Source: an uncultured Bacilli bacterium (lineage in GTDB: Bacteria > Bacillota_I > Bacilli_A > RF39 > UBA660). From it: a DNA stretch of 16,099 nucleotides. Below the pieces are notes generated by a model that was not told the origin of the DNA, did no database searches, and worked only from the letters and a program-made list of their open reading frames with translations. This document shows, piece after piece, positions 6,824 through 16,099 of the stretch. Made by a program: the position numbers and the translations under genes. The stretch spans positions 1 to 16,099 of the forward strand of contig CANQFE010000026.1 in NCBI GenBank assembly GCA_947598285.1. The letters run 5' to 3'. Within the stretch, counting starts at the first letter, position 1. Every line of letters starts with the position of its first letter.

Positions 6824-9301
6824 ATGGCAAAGAAAAAAGAAGAAAAGTCAATTGTGGAAAAAATAAGTGATTATAGTTTAGAAGAAATTATGGAAACAGG
6901 TTTTGCAAGATACTCCAAAGAAATTATTCAAGAAAGAGCTTTACCTGATGTAAGAGATGGTCTAAAACCAGTTCAACGTCGTATTTTATATGCAATGCAT
7001 TTGTTTCATTATACACATGATAAACCTCATCGAAAAAGTGCCAAAGCCGTGGGAGATATTATGGGTAATTTCCATCCTCATGGAGATTCTTCCATTTATG
7101 ATGCGATGATTCGAATGAGTCAAAAATGGAAAATGCGTGAAGTTTTTATTGATATTCATGGCAATAATGGCTCGATTGATGGCGATGGACCAGCCGCGAT
7201 GCGTTATACCGAAGCAAGACTTTCCAAAATAGCTGAAACAATGATGGATTCCATAAAAAAAGACACCGTCGAAATGGCTTATAATTTTGATGATACGGAA
7301 TTAGAGCCAACCGTTTTACCAGCTGGATTTCCTAATTTGCTAGTGAATGGTTCAACTGGTATTTCAGCAGGATATGCGACCAATATCCCAACTCATAATT
7401 TAAGTGAAGTGATTGACGCGACGATTAAAAGAATCGATTCACCTAACTGTAAATTAGAAACAATTATGGAAATTATGCCGGGACCAGATTTCCCAACGGG
7501 CGGTGTTGTGGAAGGAAAAGAAGGTCTTGTTGAAGCTTATACGACAGGAAAAGGAAAAGTGGTTGTGAAATCTCAAACCGAAATCGTAGATAGTGGCAGT
7601 AAAAAACAAATCATTGTTCATTCCATTCCTTACGAAGTCATCAAAGAACAACTGATGAAAAAGATTATTGAAATTAAAGTCGATAAAAAAATTGAGGGAA
7701 TTAGTGATGTCATTGATGAAAGTGATGCCGACCATATGGCGCGAATCATCATTGATTTAAAAAAAGATGCCAATCCCAATTTAATCCTTAGTTATTTACT
7801 AAAAAATACCGATTTACAAATCAATTATAACTTTAATATGGTCGCGATTGTAAATAGAAGACCAAAATTAGTTGGTGTTTTAGATATTTTAGATGCTTTT
7901 ATTACTCACCAAAGAGAAGTAATAAGAAGAAGAACTGAATTTGATTTAAATAAAGCTAAATTTGATTTTCATATTTTAGAAGGTTTGATGAAGGCCATTA
8001 GTATTTTAGATGAAGTAATCGCGACTATCCGGAAAAGTAAAAACAAAGCCGATTCCATTGACAATTTATGCAAAAATTTTGATTTTACTTATGACCAAAG
8101 TAAAGCCATTGTTGAATTACAACTTTATCGTTTAAGTAATACAGATATTGAAGAAATCAAAGAAAGAATGAAAGAACTAGAAAAAAATATGCATATTTGG
8201 ACCCAGATTTTAGAAAATGAAGAAGCCTTAAAACATGTCATGAAAACAGAATTAAGATTATTAAAGAAAGAATATGGAAATCCTCGCCGAACTGAAATCA
8301 AAGAAGAAGTAACTGAAATTAAAATTGACATGAAAAGTATGATTCCAAAAGAAAAAGTGGTTGTTTTAATTACCAAAGAAGGATATGTAAAAAGAGTAAG
8401 TAATAAATCCTTCATAGCTAATAATGAAGAACCAGCAATGAAACCAGGAGATTATATCACTGCTTTATTTGATGTAACGACCCAAGACCATCTGCTATTG
8501 TTTACTAATTTAGGAAATTATATTTTCTTACCAGTTCATAAAATTCCAGAAGCTAAATGGAAAGAAATCGGAAAACATATCAATAATATTGTCACGATGA
8601 CTCCAGAAGAAAAAATCGTCGCGTCCTTTATTTACCAAAAAGAAGAAAAAATTGTTAGTGTTACCAAAAATGGTATGATTAAAAAAACCAAAGCTAGTGA
8701 CTATGAAGTAAGTAGAACGAGCAAAGCCATGATTTCGATGAAACTAAAAGAACACGATGAAGTCGTAAAAGTTGTAAGTGCTAAGACGAATATCATGGTA
8801 GTTACCAAAAATGGCTATTATTGTAACTTTAATTCCATTGAAATTCCTTTGGTTGGTGTAAGAGGTTCTGGAGTAAAAGCCATATCCTTAAAAGAAGATG
8901 AAGTTGTATCTTTAATCACATGGCAAGAAGAAGAATATTTAACTATTTTTACGAATCAAAAAACTGCAAAAAGAATAAAACTAAGCGAAATGGATATAAC
9001 AGGACGAGCCAAAAGAGGAAGTACACTTCTAAAAAAAGTAAAAAGTGTTCCTTACTTCGTTTTAAGTGCATTTGTAAGTGATGCAAGAAGCCTTCTTACT
9101 GTTGTAGAAGAAGAAAATACAATAGAGTTGAAAAACAGTGAAATTCCAATTATGGATACTGCGAGCACAGGTTCTGTGATTACCAAAAAGAAAATGATAG
9201 ATGCTTTTTTAAAAGTAAATTTAGTAAGTAATCAAAAAGAAGAAAATGCTTCTATAGAAAAAGAAGTTCAACTCGATTTTAATATTGAAGATTTTAAATG
9301 A
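6824..9301 (+). CDS. parC: DNA topoisomerase IV subunit A
   Basis: 825 aa. FARYSKEIIQERALPDVRDGLKPVQRRILYAM is the Gram-positive ParC-type N-terminus (GyrA has SYLDYAMSVIV..RALPD and PVHRR). The QRDR is HPHGDSSIYDAMIRMSQ and the catalytic Tyr lies in AAMRYTEARL. I saw no GyrA-box (QRRGGKG) at the start of the C-terminal domain. AGGTGA RBS; 8-nt gap after parE. Confidence 0.88.
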   Translation: MAKKKEEKSIVEKISDYSLEEIMETGFARYSKEIIQERALPDVRDGLKPVQRRILYAMHLFHYTHDKPHRKSAKAVGDIMGNFHPHGDSSIYDAMIRMSQKWKMREVFIDIHGNNGSIDGDGPAAMRYTEARLSKIAETMMDSIKKDTVEMAYNFDDTELEPTVLPAGFPNLLVNGSTGISAGYATNIPTHNLSEVIDATIKRIDSPNCKLETIMEIMPGPDFPTGGVVEGKEGLVEAYTTGKGKVVVKSQTEIVDSGSKKQIIVHSIPYEVIKEQLMKKIIEIKVDKKIEGISDVIDESDADHMARIIIDLKKDANPNLILSYLLKNTDLQINYNFNMVAIVNRRPKLVGVLDILDAFITHQREVIRRRTEFDLNKAKFDFHILEGLMKAISILDEVIATIRKSKNKADSIDNLCKNFDFTYDQSKAIVELQLYRLSNTDIEEIKERMKELEKNMHIWTQILENEEALKHVMKTELRLLKKEYGNPRRTEIKEEVTEIKIDMKSMIPKEKVVVLITKEGYVKRVSNKSFIANNEEPAMKPGDYITALFDVTTQDHLLLFTNLGNYIFLPVHKIPEAKWKEIGKHINNIVTMTPEEKIVASFIYQKEEKIVSVTKNGMIKKTKASDYEVSRTSKAMISMKLKEHDEVVKVVSAKTNIMVVTKNGYYCNFNSIEIPLVGVRGSGVKAISLKEDEVVSLITWQEEEYLTIFTNQKTAKRIKLSEMDITGRAKRGSTLLKKVKSVPYFVLSAFVSDARSLLTVVEEENTIELKNSEIPIMDTASTGSVITKKKMIDAFLKVNLVSNQKEENASIEKEVQLDFNIEDFK

Positions 9302-9927: not shown

Positions 9928-9932
9928 AAATG

Positions 9933-9960
9933 AAAAGCTTAAGTTTTGCTTTTTTCTTTT
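9933..9960 (+). terminator. Possible weak terminator after the ylbD/ylbE-like pair
   Basis: AAAAGC (9933-9938), a 9-nt loop, GCTTTT (9948-9953), running into TTTCTTTT. It is a short AU-rich stem. Confidence 0.3.
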
Positions 9961-9983
9961 GGAAAAAAAATAAGAGTCATAAA

Positions 9984-10012
9984 TTGACATTTCATAAAAA
10001 ATTGGGTAGAAT
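9984..10012 (+). promoter_or_regulatory. Near-consensus sigma-A-type promoter
   Basis: TTGACA (9984-9989), exactly 17-nt spacer, TAGAAT (10007-10012). It lies ~20 nt upstream of the AGGTGA RBS and ATG at 10032. Confidence 0.5.
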
Positions 10013-10031
10013 AAAACTCCAGGTGAAAGAA

Positions 10032-10460
10032 ATGAAAGAAATCAAAATGCAATACCGAATAGGCACACATTCTTATACCAAAGAAATTCCTTTTTTAAAT
10101 ATGAGTCTTTTAGAAAAACAATTTTCTCTTTCCATCCCTTTAATTACTGGAGCTACCTTAAGTTGGAAAATGAAAAAAAAATATGAAAATTATAATATTT
10201 ATGTAGGCAAAGAAATTTCTTTAAATCATATTGATGAAGAAAAATATAAATTAGAAAAATATCAAATTTCTTTAGAAGAATTAGCTGATTTAGCTGTAAA
10301 AGGTTATAAAAGAGCCTGTATTTTAAACTTTAAAAAATATGATCAAGTGATTGTTGGTGTGGAAGAAAATGCCTTAGTAGTTCCTGATTATTTTGCCTTA
10401 AAAAAAACCTTTTTTCAAATGAAACATATGATAGAAAGTATTTCAAAGGAAAGCTTATAA
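10032..10460 (+). CDS. Hypothetical protein (142 aa), no recognisable motifs
   Basis: I chose the ATG at 10032 (AGGTGAAAGAA-ATG) because the 5' extension to 9930 would run through the predicted terminator and promoter and encodes a basic, low-complexity peptide. Coding is inferred only from ORF length and the RBS. Confidence 0.5.
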   Translation: MKEIKMQYRIGTHSYTKEIPFLNMSLLEKQFSLSIPLITGATLSWKMKKKYENYNIYVGKEISLNHIDEEKYKLEKYQISLEELADLAVKGYKRACILNFKKYDQVIVGVEENALVVPDYFALKKTFFQMKHMIESISKESL

Positions 10461-10536
10461 ATTAAGCAATATAATAATTAATACTCTTTGGAGAGTGTGA
10501 AAAATTCTAAAAATAAATTTCAAATATAACATGATT

Positions 10537-12415
10537 GATAAAAAATATAAGGGAGGTTTGTATGAATTATAATGTCGATTTTGATATAGAATTAACTTTA
10601 CTTTCAGCAGAAGAAATTTTTGGGAAAAATAAATTAGATGTTCTAAGAAAATATGGAACTTCATCTGCAATTACTGATTTAGCTATTTTAACTGGGGGTG
10701 ATTGCTGTAATATGACTCTTGGTCCTAGTTTAAAAGACCGTACGGGACCGTATTATACAAAATCTCCTGGTATTAATGGAAAGGTACTGGGCATTTATGG
10801 AGATGGTGAAAGAGCTAGCTTTCATCCATGTATTCGCAGTATTGCTATTCGTCCCGTTATAAAAAACTCTACAATCTTTGATTCTCTCTATCCAAACAGA
10901 ATAAAGGATTATAATGGATGTGAAGTAGTGGAGTTCGGAGAGTATCCTCAATATACTCCAATCTTCGATGTACAAGAATTATTAGAAAAAGAATATCAAG
11001 TAATAGGTTTACGTAAAACAGGGAGAAAATATACTTTTGATTCTACAGCTTCTGATAATTATTCCCAATCTTTTCAACCTGTTACTTATAATGAATATGA
11101 ACATAAAGGGAAAAAATATATTAGAGTAGAAGCAAGATCCCGTTTTAGCTATTTTCAGTTATCAAATGAGCAAAAATATAAAAATGGAGATAATGTATGG
11201 GTAGAAGTCTCTCCAGTTGTATGGTTGATAGATGAGGAAACAAAAAGTTTGGTATGTAAAAGAGGAATTTTGTCTGGAATCCTATTTCATACAGGTTCTA
11301 AAAAATACAATGGTGATTTTAAAACAACAGAAATGAAAAAATATTTAGATAAACATATGTCAAAAGAATTATTTCAAAACATAACATTGGAAGAATATCA
11401 AAAACCAGAAGAACAAGAAATAAAAGCTAAAAAAAGAATAAACCCTTATGGATTAAAGTTTAACAATGTAAGTGAAGAAGATATAATAAAAGGATCGATT
11501 GAAAGTGGAGTTCCTGTATTTTTACATGGACCATCAAGTGAAGGAAAAAGTGCTAGAGTAAAACAAATTGATCCCGATTGTACAATTATTTATTTAAGAA
11601 ATGCAACACCTGATAGTTTGAATGGCAAAAGTGTTTATCATTCAGAAACAGGAGAAATGATAGATGTAAAACCAACATGGTTAAAAAAATTAGAAACGAA
11701 ATGTGAAAATGAACCAGAGAAATTACATATCGTATTCTTTGATGAACTTACAAATGCATTACCAAGTATCCAAGGAATTGCTTTTAATATAATATTAGAT
11801 AAAGAAGTGAATGGAATATGGAAGTTACCAGAGAATGCCAGAATCGTTGCAGCAGGAAATGAAATGAAAGATTCCTTATCAGCCAATCAACTATCTGAAC
11901 CATTATTTAATCGATTTGCCCATGTTTATATAAAAACAACTACAGAAAGTTGGTTACAATGGGCAAGTGAACATCATATTCATCCAGCAATTTATTCATA
12001 TATAGCATATAAAAAGGGAAAAACATTAAGAAGTAAATATGATGGCGAAAAACCAAATGCTGATCCAAGGAAATGGGAAATGGCCTCAAAGATGCTTTAT
12101 GCTACAGGAAAACCAGAGATGTTAAGAGCTTTAGTAGGAGAAGAAATTACGAAAGATTTTGTAGAGTTTTGTAAGCAAGAAGTAATCACATTAAAAGATG
12201 TGCTACAAGATAACTATAGCAAAGAAGATATTCAAAGACTCAATACAGCATCGAAATATGCAACAGCAGTAACATTATCTCAAGTAGATGAAGAGAATAT
12301 GGCAAAGGTAAGGCAATTCATTACAAATTTAGGAGCAGAATTTGTAGCAATATTTGATTCATTATGGAGTCAAGAAAATGAATCAAGATTAGAACAAGTT
12401 TTAGAACAAAGACTT
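10537..12415 (+). repeat. Direct duplication, copy A (RBS plus almost the whole ATPase gene); perfect core at 11422-12328
   Basis: Aligned by eye to 14160-16045 (offset 3623-3624 at the 5' end, 3630 after a 6-nt indel). Every 60-nt row from 11422 to 12328 is identical to 15052-15958. Confidence 0.95.
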
Positions 12416-12436
12416 GTATTAGGAGGTAAACGCTAA
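10562..12436 (+). CDS. AAA+ ATPase of the MoxR/AAA_5 type with a ~285-aa N-terminal extension (DUF6273-like modules); paralogue A
   Basis: ATG at 10562 with a GGGAGG RBS; the track start at 10535 is a TTG. Walker A is GPSSEGKS (11528-11551). Walker B is HIVFFDELTNA (D394 E395 at 11741-11746). There is a sensor-1-like ARIVAAGN and an Arg-finger-like EPLFNRFAHVYI, followed by a helical C-terminal region. The N-terminus carries AITDLAILTGG ... PYYTKSP ... IRPVIK and EFGEYPQ ... VVWLIDEE ... TTEMKKYLDKHMSKELF. Confidence 0.8.
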   Translation: MNYNVDFDIELTLLSAEEIFGKNKLDVLRKYGTSSAITDLAILTGGDCCNMTLGPSLKDRTGPYYTKSPGINGKVLGIYGDGERASFHPCIRSIAIRPVIKNSTIFDSLYPNRIKDYNGCEVVEFGEYPQYTPIFDVQELLEKEYQVIGLRKTGRKYTFDSTASDNYSQSFQPVTYNEYEHKGKKYIRVEARSRFSYFQLSNEQKYKNGDNVWVEVSPVVWLIDEETKSLVCKRGILSGILFHTGSKKYNGDFKTTEMKKYLDKHMSKELFQNITLEEYQKPEEQEIKAKKRINPYGLKFNNVSEEDIIKGSIESGVPVFLHGPSSEGKSARVKQIDPDCTIIYLRNATPDSLNGKSVYHSETGEMIDVKPTWLKKLETKCENEPEKLHIVFFDELTNALPSIQGIAFNIILDKEVNGIWKLPENARIVAAGNEMKDSLSANQLSEPLFNRFAHVYIKTTTESWLQWASEHHIHPAIYSYIAYKKGKTLRSKYDGEKPNADPRKWEMASKMLYATGKPEMLRALVGEEITKDFVEFCKQEVITLKDVLQDNYSKEDIQRLNTASKYATAVTLSQVDEENMAKVRQFITNLGAEFVAIFDSLWSQENESRLEQVLEQRLVLGGKR

Positions 12437-12831
12437 TGAATCAAGATAAAATAAACCTTTTAAAAAATTATATTTCGGCTAACGTTGCACCTATCCTAAT
12501 AGATTTTGTTTCTGATATTCATCTTTCAAATTCAATTTCGATACCAGCAAATTGTGATGAATCAGATTTTAATGGGCATTTTCTTGGAAAAGAGTTTTTA
12601 CCACCTAAATGGTATTATGAATTAATTCATAAAAAAGATACCAAAGTAATTGTTATTAATAATATTGATAGTATTTCAAAAGAAGAACAATTAAAATTTA
12701 AAGAGTTACTAAAGTATAAGCAAGTCGCAACATTTAAAATACCAGAAAAAACAAGAATTATTTTAACAGCTAAAAAGGTGAATAAAAATACCATCAATGA
12801 AGAAATATATTCTTTAGTCGCGCATATTTGA
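12436..12831 (+). CDS. Small protein (131 aa) resembling a degenerate AAA+ half-domain with no Walker A and Walker B DE replaced by NN
   Basis: TAATG overlap with the upstream stop (12434-12436 / 12436-12438), with AGGAGG at 12421-12426. The C-terminal 75 aa (PPKWYYELIHKKDTKVIVINNIDSISKEEQLKFKELLKYKQVATFKIPEKTRIILTAKK..INEEIYSLVAHI) align by eye with the upstream ATPase segment PTWLKKLE..KLHIVFFDELTNALPSIQGIAFNIILDKEVNGIWKLPENARIVAAGN..LSEPLFNRFAHVYI. Confidence 0.6.
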   Translation: MNQDKINLLKNYISANVAPILIDFVSDIHLSNSISIPANCDESDFNGHFLGKEFLPPKWYYELIHKKDTKVIVINNIDSISKEEQLKFKELLKYKQVATFKIPEKTRIILTAKKVNKNTINEEIYSLVAHI

Positions 12832-12841
12832 AGGTAAGATT

Positions 12842-14161
12842 ATGAATTGTGATGTAGAATTGATAAAAAGAAAAATGCTTGTAAAATATCCTTTTTTTGG
12901 TAGTGTTATAGCTAATGTTGATTATAAAGAAAATATGGAGATTGAAAGAGCATGTACGGATGGAATGACAATATATTTTAATCCAAATTCTTTAAAGCGA
13001 ATAAAAATGGAAGAACAAATTTTTATTTTTGCACATGAAGTGTGTCATATTGCTTTTGATCATATTAATAGAAGTGAAGGCAAAGATTTCAAAATATGGG
13101 ATATTGCCACGGATGGTGTTATAAACCAATTTTTAAAACGGGATGGTTTAAAAATTCCTAATGGTATGATAGATATACCCGAAGCAATCAATTATGATGC
13201 TGAAGAATTGTATGAAAAATTACTAAAAAAGAACCAACAAAACAAAGAACAAAATAGCCAAGGTGATTTGCAAAAACAACGAGACTCATCAGGGCAAAAA
13301 AATTCTTCAGATGAAGAAAACTCTTTTGAAAACCAAAATAATGATGTAAATCATGATACTCATAGTATGTGGAAAGATGCATTAAAAAGAAAAAAAGAAA
13401 ATGAAGAAATGAAAAAACAACAAGAAAATAAATTACAACAAGAAATCGATAAAATTAGTGACATGGGTGAAAAAGAAGCTTTTCATAAGAATTTAGAAGA
13501 AAAAAAACAGGAATTAGAAACATTAAAACAAGTTTTATCTAAAGAATTAATGAAAGCTGGAACATCTACGAATGAAGAGCAATTTACCATAGATGATATA
13601 GGAAAATCTAAACCGATGATAGATTGGAGATATGTTCTAAGAGAAGCGATTCAATATGATGTTGATTGGTCTTATAAAAATGCTTATATTGAGGATGGTG
13701 TAATAAGTGCAAATTTAGAAGAACAACCTTTGCCTGAAACAGAAATTTTATTAGATACTAGTGGTTCTATAGATGAATCTCTTCTTAAAAACTTTTTAAG
13801 AGAATGTAAAAATATTTTACAATATTCCAAAATAAAAGTTGGTTGTTTTGATGACAAATTTTATGGATTCCATGAAATTAGAAACGAAAAAGATATAGAA
13901 AATATGAAGTTTGAAGGTAAAGGAGGAACAGATTTTACTGTTGCGGTAAAAGCATTTACAAGAAGAGTAGAAAACAAAATCATTTTTACGGATGGATATG
14001 CAAGTATGCCAGATATTTCATTAAATGCTATTTGGATCGTTTTTGGAACAGAAGAAATTAAACCTAAAGGTGGAAAAGTAATTCAAATAAATGAAGAACA
14101 ATTAAATAGATTATATTCTCTTGAACAAGATATGTCTTATAAAAGAAAAAAAGAATTATGA
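12842..14161 (+). CDS. Putative metallopeptidase (HExxH) plus von Willebrand A-like protein, DUF2201_N/DUF2201 architecture
   Basis: N-terminus YPFFGSVIANV ... CTDGMTIYFNPN ... FIFAHEVCHIAFDH (HEVCH at 13034-13048) ... WDIATDGVINQFL ... DAEELYEKL. C-terminus has MIDAS-like LLDTSGSID (DTSGS at 13754-13768), GKGGTDFT and IIFTDGYASMP...AIWIVF. A ~120-aa Q/N/K/E-rich linker sits between them. GAAGGTAAG RBS; 10-nt gap after the upstream gene. Confidence 0.8.
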   Translation: MNCDVELIKRKMLVKYPFFGSVIANVDYKENMEIERACTDGMTIYFNPNSLKRIKMEEQIFIFAHEVCHIAFDHINRSEGKDFKIWDIATDGVINQFLKRDGLKIPNGMIDIPEAINYDAEELYEKLLKKNQQNKEQNSQGDLQKQRDSSGQKNSSDEENSFENQNNDVNHDTHSMWKDALKRKKENEEMKKQQENKLQQEIDKISDMGEKEAFHKNLEEKKQELETLKQVLSKELMKAGTSTNEEQFTIDDIGKSKPMIDWRYVLREAIQYDVDWSYKNAYIEDGVISANLEEQPLPETEILLDTSGSIDESLLKNFLRECKNILQYSKIKVGCFDDKFYGFHEIRNEKDIENMKFEGKGGTDFTVAVKAFTRRVENKIIFTDGYASMPDISLNAIWIVFGTEEIKPKGGKVIQINEEQLNRLYSLEQDMSYKRKKEL

Positions 14162-16045
14162 TAGAAAAATATAAGGGTGGTTTGTATGAATTTTAATATC
14201 GATTTTGATATAGAATTAACTTTACTTTCAGAAGAAGAAATTTTTGGGAAAAATCAATTAGATGTTCTAAGAAAATATGGAACTCAATCTGCGATCACTG
14301 ATTTAGCTATTTTGACAGGTGGGATTTGCAGCAAAAAGTGTTATGTTCCTGATGATACTAGTTTAAAAGGTCGTACAGTACCGTATTATACAAAATCTTC
14401 TTTTTATGAGAACGATCTATGTATAGATTTAGCTGGCAATATGATGTTTAGACATCGTTGTAGCCGATCTGAAGGCATTCGTCCCATTATAAAAAACTCT
14501 ACAATCTTTGATTCTCTCTATCCAAACAGAATAAAGGGTTATAATGGATGTGAAGTAGTGGAGTTCGGAGAATATCCTCAATATGCTCCAATTTCCGATG
14601 TACAAGAATTATTAGAAAAAAAATATCAAGTAATAGATTTACGTAAAACAGGGAAAAAATATACTTTTGATTCTACAGCTTACAGTAATTTTTCCCAATC
14701 TTTTCGACCTGTTACTTATGAGGAATATGAATATAATGAAAAAAAATATATTAGAGTAGAAGCAAGATCCTGTTGTCAAGATTTTCAGTTATCAAATTAT
14801 GAAGAATATAAAAATGGAGATAATGTATGGGTAGAAGTCTCTCCAGTTGTATGGTTGATAGATGAGGAAACAAAAAGTTTAGTATGTAAAAGAGGACTTT
14901 TGTCTGGAATAAGATTTCATACAGATTCTAAAAAATACAATGGTGATTTTAATACAACAGAACTGAAAGAATATTTAGATAAACATATGTCAAAAGAATT
15001 ATTTCAAAATATAACATTGGAAGAATATCAAAAACTGGAAGAACAAGAAAAAAAAGCTAAAAAAAGAATAAACCCTTATGGATTAAAGTTTAACAATGTA
15101 AGTGAAGAAGATATAATAAAAGGATCGATTGAAAGTGGAGTTCCTGTATTTTTACATGGACCATCAAGTGAAGGAAAAAGTGCTAGAGTAAAACAAATTG
15201 ATCCCGATTGTACAATTATTTATTTAAGAAATGCAACACCTGATAGTTTGAATGGCAAAAGTGTTTATCATTCAGAAACAGGAGAAATGATAGATGTAAA
15301 ACCAACATGGTTAAAAAAATTAGAAACGAAATGTGAAAATGAACCAGAGAAATTACATATCGTATTCTTTGATGAACTTACAAATGCATTACCAAGTATC
15401 CAAGGAATTGCTTTTAATATAATATTAGATAAAGAAGTGAATGGAATATGGAAGTTACCAGAGAATGCCAGAATCGTTGCAGCAGGAAATGAAATGAAAG
15501 ATTCCTTATCAGCCAATCAACTATCTGAACCATTATTTAATCGATTTGCCCATGTTTATATAAAAACAACTACAGAAAGTTGGTTACAATGGGCAAGTGA
15601 ACATCATATTCATCCAGCAATTTATTCATATATAGCATATAAAAAGGGAAAAACATTAAGAAGTAAATATGATGGCGAAAAACCAAATGCTGATCCAAGG
15701 AAATGGGAAATGGCCTCAAAGATGCTTTATGCTACAGGAAAACCAGAGATGTTAAGAGCTTTAGTAGGAGAAGAAATTACGAAAGATTTTGTAGAGTTTT
15801 GTAAGCAAGAAGTAATCACATTAAAAGATGTGCTACAAGATAACTATAGCAAAGAAGATATTCAAAGACTCAATACAGCATCGAAATATGCAACAGCAGT
15901 AACATTATCTCAAGTAGATGAAGAGAATATGGCAAAGGTAAGGCAATTCATTACAAATCTAGGAGCAGAATTTGTCGCAATATTTGATTCATTATGGAAT
16001 CAAGAAAATGAATCAAGGTTAGAACAAGTTTTAGAACAAAGACTT
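14160..16045 (+). repeat. Direct duplication, copy B; perfect core at 15052-15958
   Basis: See copy A. The duplication starts at the stop codon of the vWA gene and includes the RBS (AAGGGTGG versus AAGGGAGG). Confidence 0.95.
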
Positions 16046-16099
16046 ACAAATTCAGTAGAAAAAAGAATATTACAAAAAAACGTTGAATTAAAAATTTAA
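14186..16099 (+). CDS. AAA+ ATPase of the MoxR/AAA_5 type with a diverged N-terminal extension; paralogue B
   Basis: ATG at 14186 (the track start at 14177 is a GTG) with an AAGGGTGG RBS. The Walker A, Walker B and sensor motifs are the same as in paralogue A, within the identical tract. The N-terminus differs (GGICSKKCYVPDDTSLKGRTVPYYTKSSFYENDLCIDLAGNMMFRHRCSRSEGIRPIIK) and the C-terminal tail is distinct (TNSVEKRILQKNVELKI). The TAA stop is the last 3 bases of the window. Confidence 0.8.
   Translation: MNFNIDFDIELTLLSEEEIFGKNQLDVLRKYGTQSAITDLAILTGGICSKKCYVPDDTSLKGRTVPYYTKSSFYENDLCIDLAGNMMFRHRCSRSEGIRPIIKNSTIFDSLYPNRIKGYNGCEVVEFGEYPQYAPISDVQELLEKKYQVIDLRKTGKKYTFDSTAYSNFSQSFRPVTYEEYEYNEKKYIRVEARSCCQDFQLSNYEEYKNGDNVWVEVSPVVWLIDEETKSLVCKRGLLSGIRFHTDSKKYNGDFNTTELKEYLDKHMSKELFQNITLEEYQKLEEQEKKAKKRINPYGLKFNNVSEEDIIKGSIESGVPVFLHGPSSEGKSARVKQIDPDCTIIYLRNATPDSLNGKSVYHSETGEMIDVKPTWLKKLETKCENEPEKLHIVFFDELTNALPSIQGIAFNIILDKEVNGIWKLPENARIVAAGNEMKDSLSANQLSEPLFNRFAHVYIKTTTESWLQWASEHHIHPAIYSYIAYKKGKTLRSKYDGEKPNADPRKWEMASKMLYATGKPEMLRALVGEEITKDFVEFCKQEVITLKDVLQDNYSKEDIQRLNTASKYATAVTLSQVDEENMAKVRQFITNLGAEFVAIFDSLWNQENESRLEQVLEQRLTNSVEKRILQKNVELKI

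Follow-up and report, generated by a model that had tools for sequence, protein, structure and literature searches.

The window analysed here is the whole of a 16,099-nt stretch from an uncultured Bacilli bacterium (contig CANQFE010000026.1), and its central feature is a pair of tandem paralogues on the + strand, A (10562..12436; 624 aa, ATG at 10562) and B (14186..16099; 637 aa, ATG at 14186), both of which join an N-terminal variable module of ~290 aa to a MoxR-like AAA+ ATPase. Two further open reading frames (ORFs) lie between them on the same strand, encoding a 131-aa partner protein (12436..12831) and a 439-aa protein (12842..14161) with a DUF2201_N putative metallopeptidase domain and a DUF2201 VWA-like domain. 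Within the module is a short patch in which A and B differ strongly. We consider it probable that this patch is a ligand-contacting cassette of the type diversified by diversity-generating retroelements (DGRs), frozen in two paralogues at a locus from which the DGR is absent.

The stop codon of A (12433-12436) overlaps the start of the 131-aa ORF, both lying at 12436, and B starts 25 nt past the DUF2201 stop. Ribosome-binding sites precede A (GGGAGG) and B (GGGTGG), and across the 28 nt preceding the two start codons a single base differs, within this site. The ATPase half gave a weak Pfam match to AAA_5 (E 0.005; 17.3 bits, under the 22-bit cut-off), while A matched the PHROGs family phrog_1297, 'ATPase' (E 6e-51), and has Walker A (GPSSEGKS) at residue 323 and Walker B (IVFFDE) at 390. 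The 439-aa protein matched Pfam DUF2201_N (E 7.4e-33) and DUF2201 VWA-like (E 1.6e-14) and contains an HExxH motif in the form HEVCH at residue 65; it also matched phrog_1314 (E 7e-64), and the 'HNH endonuclease' label that PHROGs gives to this family looks wrong. The 131-aa protein had no match in Pfam, NCBIfam, or PHROGs and is 43-68% identical across ~50 related loci. The N-terminal ~290 aa of A and B likewise had no direct match in Pfam, NCBIfam, PADLOC, or PHROGs.

The patch occupies residues 47-95 of A (DCCNMTLGPSLKDRTGPYYTKSPGINGKVLGIYGDGERASFHPCIRSIA; 10700..10846) and residues 47-97 of B (14324..14476), and the coordinates and sequences given in the first-pass annotation, made by a model from the DNA alone, are exact in both paralogues. 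Protein identity between A and B is 0.89 over residues 1-46, 0.39 over residues 47-95, 0.89 over 96-160, 0.70 over 161-210, 0.90 over 211-290, and 1.00 over 300-610. The near-identity claimed for the DNA following the patch holds but is not complete, and a second, weaker variable region is found at residues 161-210 (11042-11191 in A, and the equivalent in B). This second region has 19.7 nonsynonymous (Nd) against 2.3 synonymous (Sd) differences, giving a dN/dS ratio (omega) of ~2 from small counts, and it is the most divergent part of the paralogue pair at one related locus (L001) whose patch is 91% identical. It may be part of the same binding face as the patch.

The patch falls into three pieces, namely a loop prone to indels (residues 46-55), the conserved strand SLKxRT..YYTKS, and a hairpin plus loop (residues 73-98). 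In A, the length-variable loop lies at 10697..10726 (+), outside the region diversified by DGRs in relatives, and the conserved island SLKDRTGPYYTKS at 10727..10765 (+; residues 56-68; family consensus SLKGRTxWFWTRS). The equivalent of the DGR variable region follows at 10778..10855 (+) in A, where residues 73-98 comprise the hairpin (75-87) and a loop ending at IRP, and at 14408..14485 (+; residues 75-100) in B. The two-codon indel reported for the patch is correct as a net count, but is a composite of three additional codons in the G45-S56 loop of B and one codon fewer between S68 and G82. Spacing between G45 and S56 is 10 residues in A, 13 in B, and 7-21 among 105 family members, and the S-to-G spacer before the core of B is one codon shorter than in A and in 93 of 105 relatives. 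The core itself, G82 to R97, is of one fixed length throughout the 105.

Divergence between A and B was then calculated region by region at synonymous (dS) and nonsynonymous (dN) sites by the Nei-Gojobori method. A recount of the first 46 codons agreed with the earlier figures of five replacements (codons 3, 5, 16, 24, and 34) and six synonymous codon differences (36, 37, 43, 44, 45, and 46), all six of the latter falling inside the 11 fully conserved residues AITDLAILTGG. dS was 0 at codons 1-33, rose to 1.04 at codons 34-46 (omega 0.07), and was 0.68 in the patch itself (codons 47-95; dN 0.59), with the conserved island at 0.26 (omega 0.26). Beyond the patch it was 0.08 at codons 96-290 (omega ~0.95), dS and dN were both 0 at codons 291-589, and dS was 0.20 at codons 590-618. 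Because the synonymous changes cluster at codons 36-46, beside the patch, the old-divergence tract was taken as codons ~34-99 (10661..10858, +), which includes the conserved AITDLAILTGG motif with its saturated synonymous differences and is wider than the residues 47-95 originally recognized, although the latter, at 39% identity, diverge genuinely and far beyond chance fluctuation. The ATPase core, by comparison, contains a 907-nt identical run (11422..12328 in A, 15052..15958 in B; +) that was homogenized by gene conversion or very recently duplicated, and the duplicated unit of B (14159-16045, +) as a whole is 93.3% identical by blastn over 1892 nt to 10536-12415 of A. The gene pair is thus a mosaic of an old diverged cassette (codons ~34-99) in a homogenized background, most strongly so in the ATPase. 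Gene conversion between the tandem copies, with selection holding the cassettes apart, presumably produced this pattern, and import of the cassette from another paralogue is an equivalent alternative origin.

The mosaic bears directly on how the patch diverged. The original suggestion of localized loop replacement on a conserved scaffold implied that the loops changed in place after duplication, and a recent duplication followed by point mutation and positive selection, neither older ancestry nor recombination being involved, would account for the near-identical flanks, for the many nonsynonymous changes in the patch, and for the omega of ~2 at residues 161-210. It is not borne out by dS, which reaches 0.7-1.0 at codons 34-95 whereas the flanks stay at 0-0.08. 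A tenfold rise of dS confined to one short tract cannot come from amino-acid selection, and since the jump extends into AITDLAILTGG, with six synonymous changes in 11 conserved residues, it does not stem from selection on the loop residues. In-place divergence is hence quite unlikely. Nor is adenine mutagenesis the source of these six changes, as T/C and G/T differences are among them.

Degeneration of one paralogue under relaxed constraint would offer another account of the patch difference. Some features fit with it: B lacks one codon in the spacer whose length is constant in 93 of 105 relatives, neither copy follows the family consensus (PYYTKS rather than WFWTRS, and IRP(V/I)I rather than VRPAL), and omega is ~0.95 over residues 96-290. 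However, each ORF is complete and has its ribosome-binding site and Walker motifs, the ATPase half of B equals that of A over the 907 nt, and the near-invariant T12, D39, G45, hairpin glycine, R92, and RP are retained in both. The low omega at codons 34-46 and in the conserved island also argues against decay, which we regard as very improbable; neither copy is a decaying pseudogene.

To place A and B in a wider context, a search with the N-domain returned 208 homologues, the best 59% identical, and a scan of one genome per species returned 364 matching stretches in genome contigs. Seventy-six loci (L001-L076) were kept, all from gut, faecal, or rumen metagenome-assembled genomes (MAGs) or CAG genomes, and mostly labelled Bacilli, Tenericutes, or Clostridia. 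Mapping by tblastn found the operon of N-domain-ATPase, 131-aa protein, and DUF2201 protein in most loci, the DUF2201 protein being a conserved downstream partner. The module is coupled by a conserved operon to an AAA+ ATPase and a VWA/metallopeptidase protein. Identity to the window was mostly 74-85% in the ATPase domain, lower in a few divergent loci, and 37-60% in the N-domain. Close relatives of the window's organism in which strain-level variation of the patch could be followed were not found, the best matches reaching 60% identity among genome contigs and 45% among JGI metagenomes. A phage origin of the locus was rejected: 2.9 million viral contigs (IMG/VR) held a single relative, and phage ATPases matched the ATPase half alone, at 24-32% identity.

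Tandem ATPase paralogues occur several at a time in many loci, and two of these (L001 and L002) have the window's layout. Larger arrays, with between 3 and at least 7 N-domain-ATPase genes in tandem, were observed at L032/L051, which belong to one contig of a Hadza-gut MAG, at L015, and at L068/L069. At L032/L051 the order of two ATPase genes, one 131-aa gene, and one DUF2201 gene is repeated at least twice running, in the same ratio as in the window. Elsewhere, tandem triplets of free-standing 364-aa N-domain proteins, with no ATPase fusion and with a different short C-terminal tail (...ESLNILGLG), differ from one another mainly in the patch (L030, L035, and L043). A 913-aa ORF (L017, 357-3098) has one N-domain followed by two ATPase segments and may be a fusion or the result of a deletion between tandem paralogues.

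The patch is also where the family as a whole varies most. Among tandem pairs in other genomes it was the least conserved region in most, at ATPase identities of 0.91-1.00. Across 120 homologues, per-site entropy, the measure proposed in the first-pass annotation, peaked in the second half of the patch, the most variable part of the domain, reaching 3-3.9 bits at A residues 79-81, 83, 85-88, 90, 91, and 93, which sit between the near-invariant G82, R92, and R97-P98. Secondary peaks were found at residues 194-199, 204-205, and 243-250.

Further copies of the patch-coding DNA were sought at each locus beyond the N-domain genes themselves. Such a copy, 80-100 nt long and corresponding to A residues ~73-98, was present at 12 loci of related gut Bacilli/Clostridia, between an Avd gene and a reverse transcriptase gene and usually 1.4-1.6 kb upstream of its matching variable region, giving 13 pairs of template repeat (TR) and variable region (VR), and 138 of the 148 mismatches in these pairs fell on adenines of the upstream copy. 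The template copy ends at a conserved ...GTYCGCCCAG, encoding VRPA. In one locus (L006), the genes run in the order Avd (193 aa), repeat (8581-8680), reverse transcriptase (RT; 349 aa), and target; the 193-aa product matched the DGR Avd family phrog_3206 (E 3.6e-12), and the RT matched RVT_1 (E 5.8e-18) and has the motifs LGNQSSQ and YMDD. Among the nearest phage RTs to those of the relatives is that of phage nd12 (42% identity), whose DGR targets are DUF6273 proteins. A residues 73-98 align without gaps to the variable regions of four such loci (L006, L007, L014, and L018), and the entropy peak at residues 79-93 coincides with adenine-containing TR codons. Consistent with this, five near-identical strains had 22 variable columns in nt 241-300 of the gene, compared with 0-11 per 60 nt elsewhere. 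Judged by gene content and mutational signature, the element in the relatives is a canonical DGR whose variable region is the patch core (A residues ~73-98), and the sequences show targeted hypermutation of the module in these relatives.

DGR loss is seemingly frequent in the family, since of the loci for which 2.5 kb or more of upstream sequence was available, 11 had an intact cassette, 10 had RT remnants, and 36 had neither. RT fragments or frameshifted remains were observed directly upstream of the target at L010, L011, L024, L033, L036, L037, L038, L053, L054, L072, and L074, and are snapshots of DGR decay. In the arrays of L032/L051, L015, and L068/L069, with no RT in range, the variable regions of the paralogues nevertheless resemble adenine-mutated versions of a common template, and a remote DGR or past activity could lie behind them.

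The window itself holds no cognate TR and no DGR-type RT or Avd. Searches by tblastn with the L006 RT and Avd and with the 162-aa neighbour protein found none of these and no RT remnant within its 16 kb, blastn found no template repeat, and a TR scan tolerant of adenine changes returned nothing better than candidates with 14-18 non-adenine mismatches, the L006 positive control having 2. The end at which homing would occur also appears to have degraded. At loci with an intact RT, the 3' end of the variable region is GC-rich (mean 67%, range 57-81%; typically GGCGCCGTCCGCCCA), compared with 52% GC in A (CGCAGTATTGCTATTCGTCCC) and 57% in B (CGATCTGAAGGCATTCGTCCC).

Such data could still be reconciled with a DGR elsewhere in the genome that continues to rewrite A, B, or both in trans, so that the difference between A and B would reflect ongoing hypermutation. 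DGRs can serve several or remote targets: at one related locus (L075) two tandem paralogues have patches that match a single template copy, and in gut phages a second, remote target has been reported. Furthermore, the conserved GC-rich GGTGCTGTTCGCCCA end persists at many loci where the fetched range contains no RT. In contrast, no TR was found within the 16 kb, and one shared template could not serve both A and B, because the two differ in length near the variable-region equivalent. The differences also reach codons 34-72, beyond what is the variable region in relatives, and some are synonymous changes of other than the adenine type, and in the closest relatives of the same layout (L001 and L002), which have no RT in the available sequence, the variable-region end is still more AT-rich (33-38% GC). 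We thus view continuing diversification in trans as unlikely.

Directly upstream of A is a 176-aa ORF (9930..10460, +) that occupies the position of Avd, TR, and RT in relatives. It was considered as a DGR remnant and rejected, as tblastn revealed no similarity to those genes. It had no family match in Pfam, NCBIfam, PADLOC, or PHROGs, and no counterpart by tblastn among the 76 related loci, matching only itself; it could be lineage-specific or spurious.

The identity of the module was approached through its relatives. The first-pass annotation had guessed at a DUF6273-like domain, and for A and B themselves there was no match to Pfam PF19789 (DUF6273) even at E values up to 10. The guess does, however, find indirect support elsewhere in the family, where 6 of 95 members matched PF19789 (best E 2.1e-6). 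One of them, P0074, exceeded the cut-off of 23.5 bits with a score of 28.1, its residues 3-98 matching positions 83-168 of the 172 in the profile. The module was therefore assigned to the C-terminal half of the DUF6273 domain, with the RPA motif at its end. In A, this truncated DUF6273-like sub-domain covers residues 1 to ~115 (10562..10906, +). In published work on gut-phage DGRs, the variable region lies at the C-terminus of DUF6273, in a surface beta-hairpin of a C-type-lectin-like domain.

Structure prediction gave a confident AlphaFold model of the A N-domain (predicted local distance difference test, pLDDT, 92.8; predicted template modelling score, pTM, 0.91), in which the patch is ordered rather than disordered and consists of a strand (64-69), a beta-hairpin (75-78/84-87), and then a loop. 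A model of the 119-aa sub-domain (pLDDT 84) had as its top PDB neighbour in Foldseek, weakly matched, entry 9qa6 (prob 0.99, TM 0.52, root-mean-square deviation 2.9 A over 100 columns). This entry is the IgA peptidase of Thomasclavelia ramosa, and its N-terminal domain carries a DUF6273 annotation. The full 290-aa model had no significant Foldseek neighbour in the PDB or BFVD, and a profile search of PDB sequences returned nothing. A second candidate module was considered at the left end of the window, where an ORF at 1-1230 (+; 409 aa) with a weak PKD match has a C-terminal WLLTPYQTKS...VRPALYLKS that resembles the DUF6273 signature. It was rejected as a third DUF6273-like module, scoring ~0 against the N-domain profile and giving nothing in Pfam but the weak PKD match.

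In the window, the patch is most likely an old specificity cassette frozen in two paralogues. Under the mechanism we propose, contact with the ligand would be made by the patch, within a truncated DUF6273-type module that forms the N-terminal end of a MoxR-like AAA+ ATPase; this ATPase would work in an operon with the 131-aa protein and the DUF2201 metallopeptidase/VWA-like protein. In relatives, as their sequences show, the RT makes errors at adenines when it copies the template and the copy is written into the gene, which would change binding specificity. In the lineage of the window, with the DGR absent from the locus and the homing end degraded, diversity is present instead as two tandem paralogues with old, different cassettes (codons ~34-99), and gene conversion would keep the rest of the genes, and the ATPase above all, identical. 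The module probably binds a variable ligand and sets the specificity of the machine, each paralogue giving the same ATPase/peptidase machine another target. The earlier description of the patch as a specificity determinant on a conserved scaffold is supported by its being the DGR variable region of relatives, by the entropy peak, and by its ordered structure.

Several observations weigh against this interpretation. The patch omega of 0.87 is no proof of positive selection, because synonymous sites are near saturation. The match to 9qa6 is statistically weak (E 0.15), and Foldseek returned neither Mtd nor TvpA nor an FGE-type lectin fold. GC content at the 3' end of the variable-region equivalents reaches into the low end of the range for intact-RT loci (0.57), and the DGR search covers 16 kb only, so that a DGR elsewhere in the genome may act in trans. 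Lastly, a sensor or conflict role of the ATPase/DUF2201 system is an argument by analogy.

Of the described systems, the gut-phage DUF6273 targets of DGRs, including the tentaclins and Mtd-like targets of phages nd4/nd12 and those of the Faecalibacterium phages Lelie, Roos, and Pioen, appear to belong to the same domain family, on transitive hidden Markov model evidence and the structural neighbour. Their variable region is likewise a beta-hairpin at the C-terminal end of the module. Here, the module covers only the C-terminal half of the Pfam profile (83-168 of 172) and is fused to an AAA+ ATPase rather than to immunoglobulin-like or tail domains. Unlike the phage targets, it is putatively cytoplasmic, with no signal peptide evident although no formal prediction was made, and the family is chromosomal (364 genome-contig stretches against 1 in IMG/VR). 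The window itself has no DGR; targets that outlive the loss of their DGR have been reported in the gut-phage literature.

The RavA-ViaA system is a MoxR-VWA pair in which the AAA+ ATPase gene adjoins that of a VWA-type partner. The present locus resembles that system in encoding a MoxR/AAA_5-type ATPase beside a VWA-type partner. It differs in that the AAA_5 match is weak and the partner carries an HExxH domain, and such pairs are without a hypervariable N-terminal module.

The closest described logic is that of the DGR-diversified lectin-type sensor of MoxR-vWA conflict systems, and by this analogy the system here is possibly an invader sensor. In the MoxR-vWA ternary systems (PMC7159879, PMC10907252), the sensor is diversified by a DGR, as it is in relatives here through an adjacent DGR, and loci are duplicated with different sensors, as here. 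There the lectin domain forms the C-terminus, in most cases of the vWA protein, and the systems are defined by a VMAP component (Kaur et al. 2020, PMC7159879; Dore et al. 2024, PMC10907252). In contrast, the module here is N-terminal on the ATPase itself, and the partners are a DUF2201 metallopeptidase/VWA-like protein and the 131-aa protein. No VMAP was found in the window, where the third gene (131 aa) had no family match and PADLOC matches were insignificant, no VMAP profile having been used. The ternary systems occur mainly in multicellular cyanobacteria, actinobacteria, and gammaproteobacteria (PMC7159879, PMC10907252), whereas the hosts here are low-GC gut Bacilli/Clostridia MAGs. Bordetella phage BPP-1 Mtd and Treponema TvpA share with the relatives the adenine-specific change from TR to VR, a fixed-length scaffold, and a conserved GC-rich end, but are surface or tail proteins with the variable region at the protein C-terminus, and their fold was not matched here by Foldseek. 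Literature searches on DUF2201 and on DGR with AAA_5 returned nothing relevant, and no paper describing this architecture was found in the searchable literature.

The DGR-diversified cellular proteins described so far are mostly surface adhesins, or sensors with a C-terminal lectin domain that belong to conflict systems in multicellular bacteria. The family described here differs on two counts, namely a programmable module at the N-terminus of a motor ATPase and hosts that are small-genome gut bacteria of the Firmicutes type. What had been an unexplained variable patch becomes a defined specificity cassette, bounded by codons ~34-99 with its core at 73-98, and this sets the segment for swap experiments. 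The related loci form a natural series of intact DGR, RT remnants, and no DGR, in which some DGR-less loci, including the window, have tandem paralogue arrays, and this series makes it testable when hypermutation is traded for a fixed repertoire. More speculatively, and as a proposal we hold to be possible rather than probable, one family of MoxR-like AAA+ ATPases in unicellular gut Bacilli and Clostridia may contain a built-in N-terminal ligand sensor, programmable by a DGR, that drives a VWA-metallopeptidase in a cytoplasmic surveillance resembling that of antigen receptors, and some lineages, such as that of the window, may have swapped hypermutation for gene-converted arrays of frozen paralogues.

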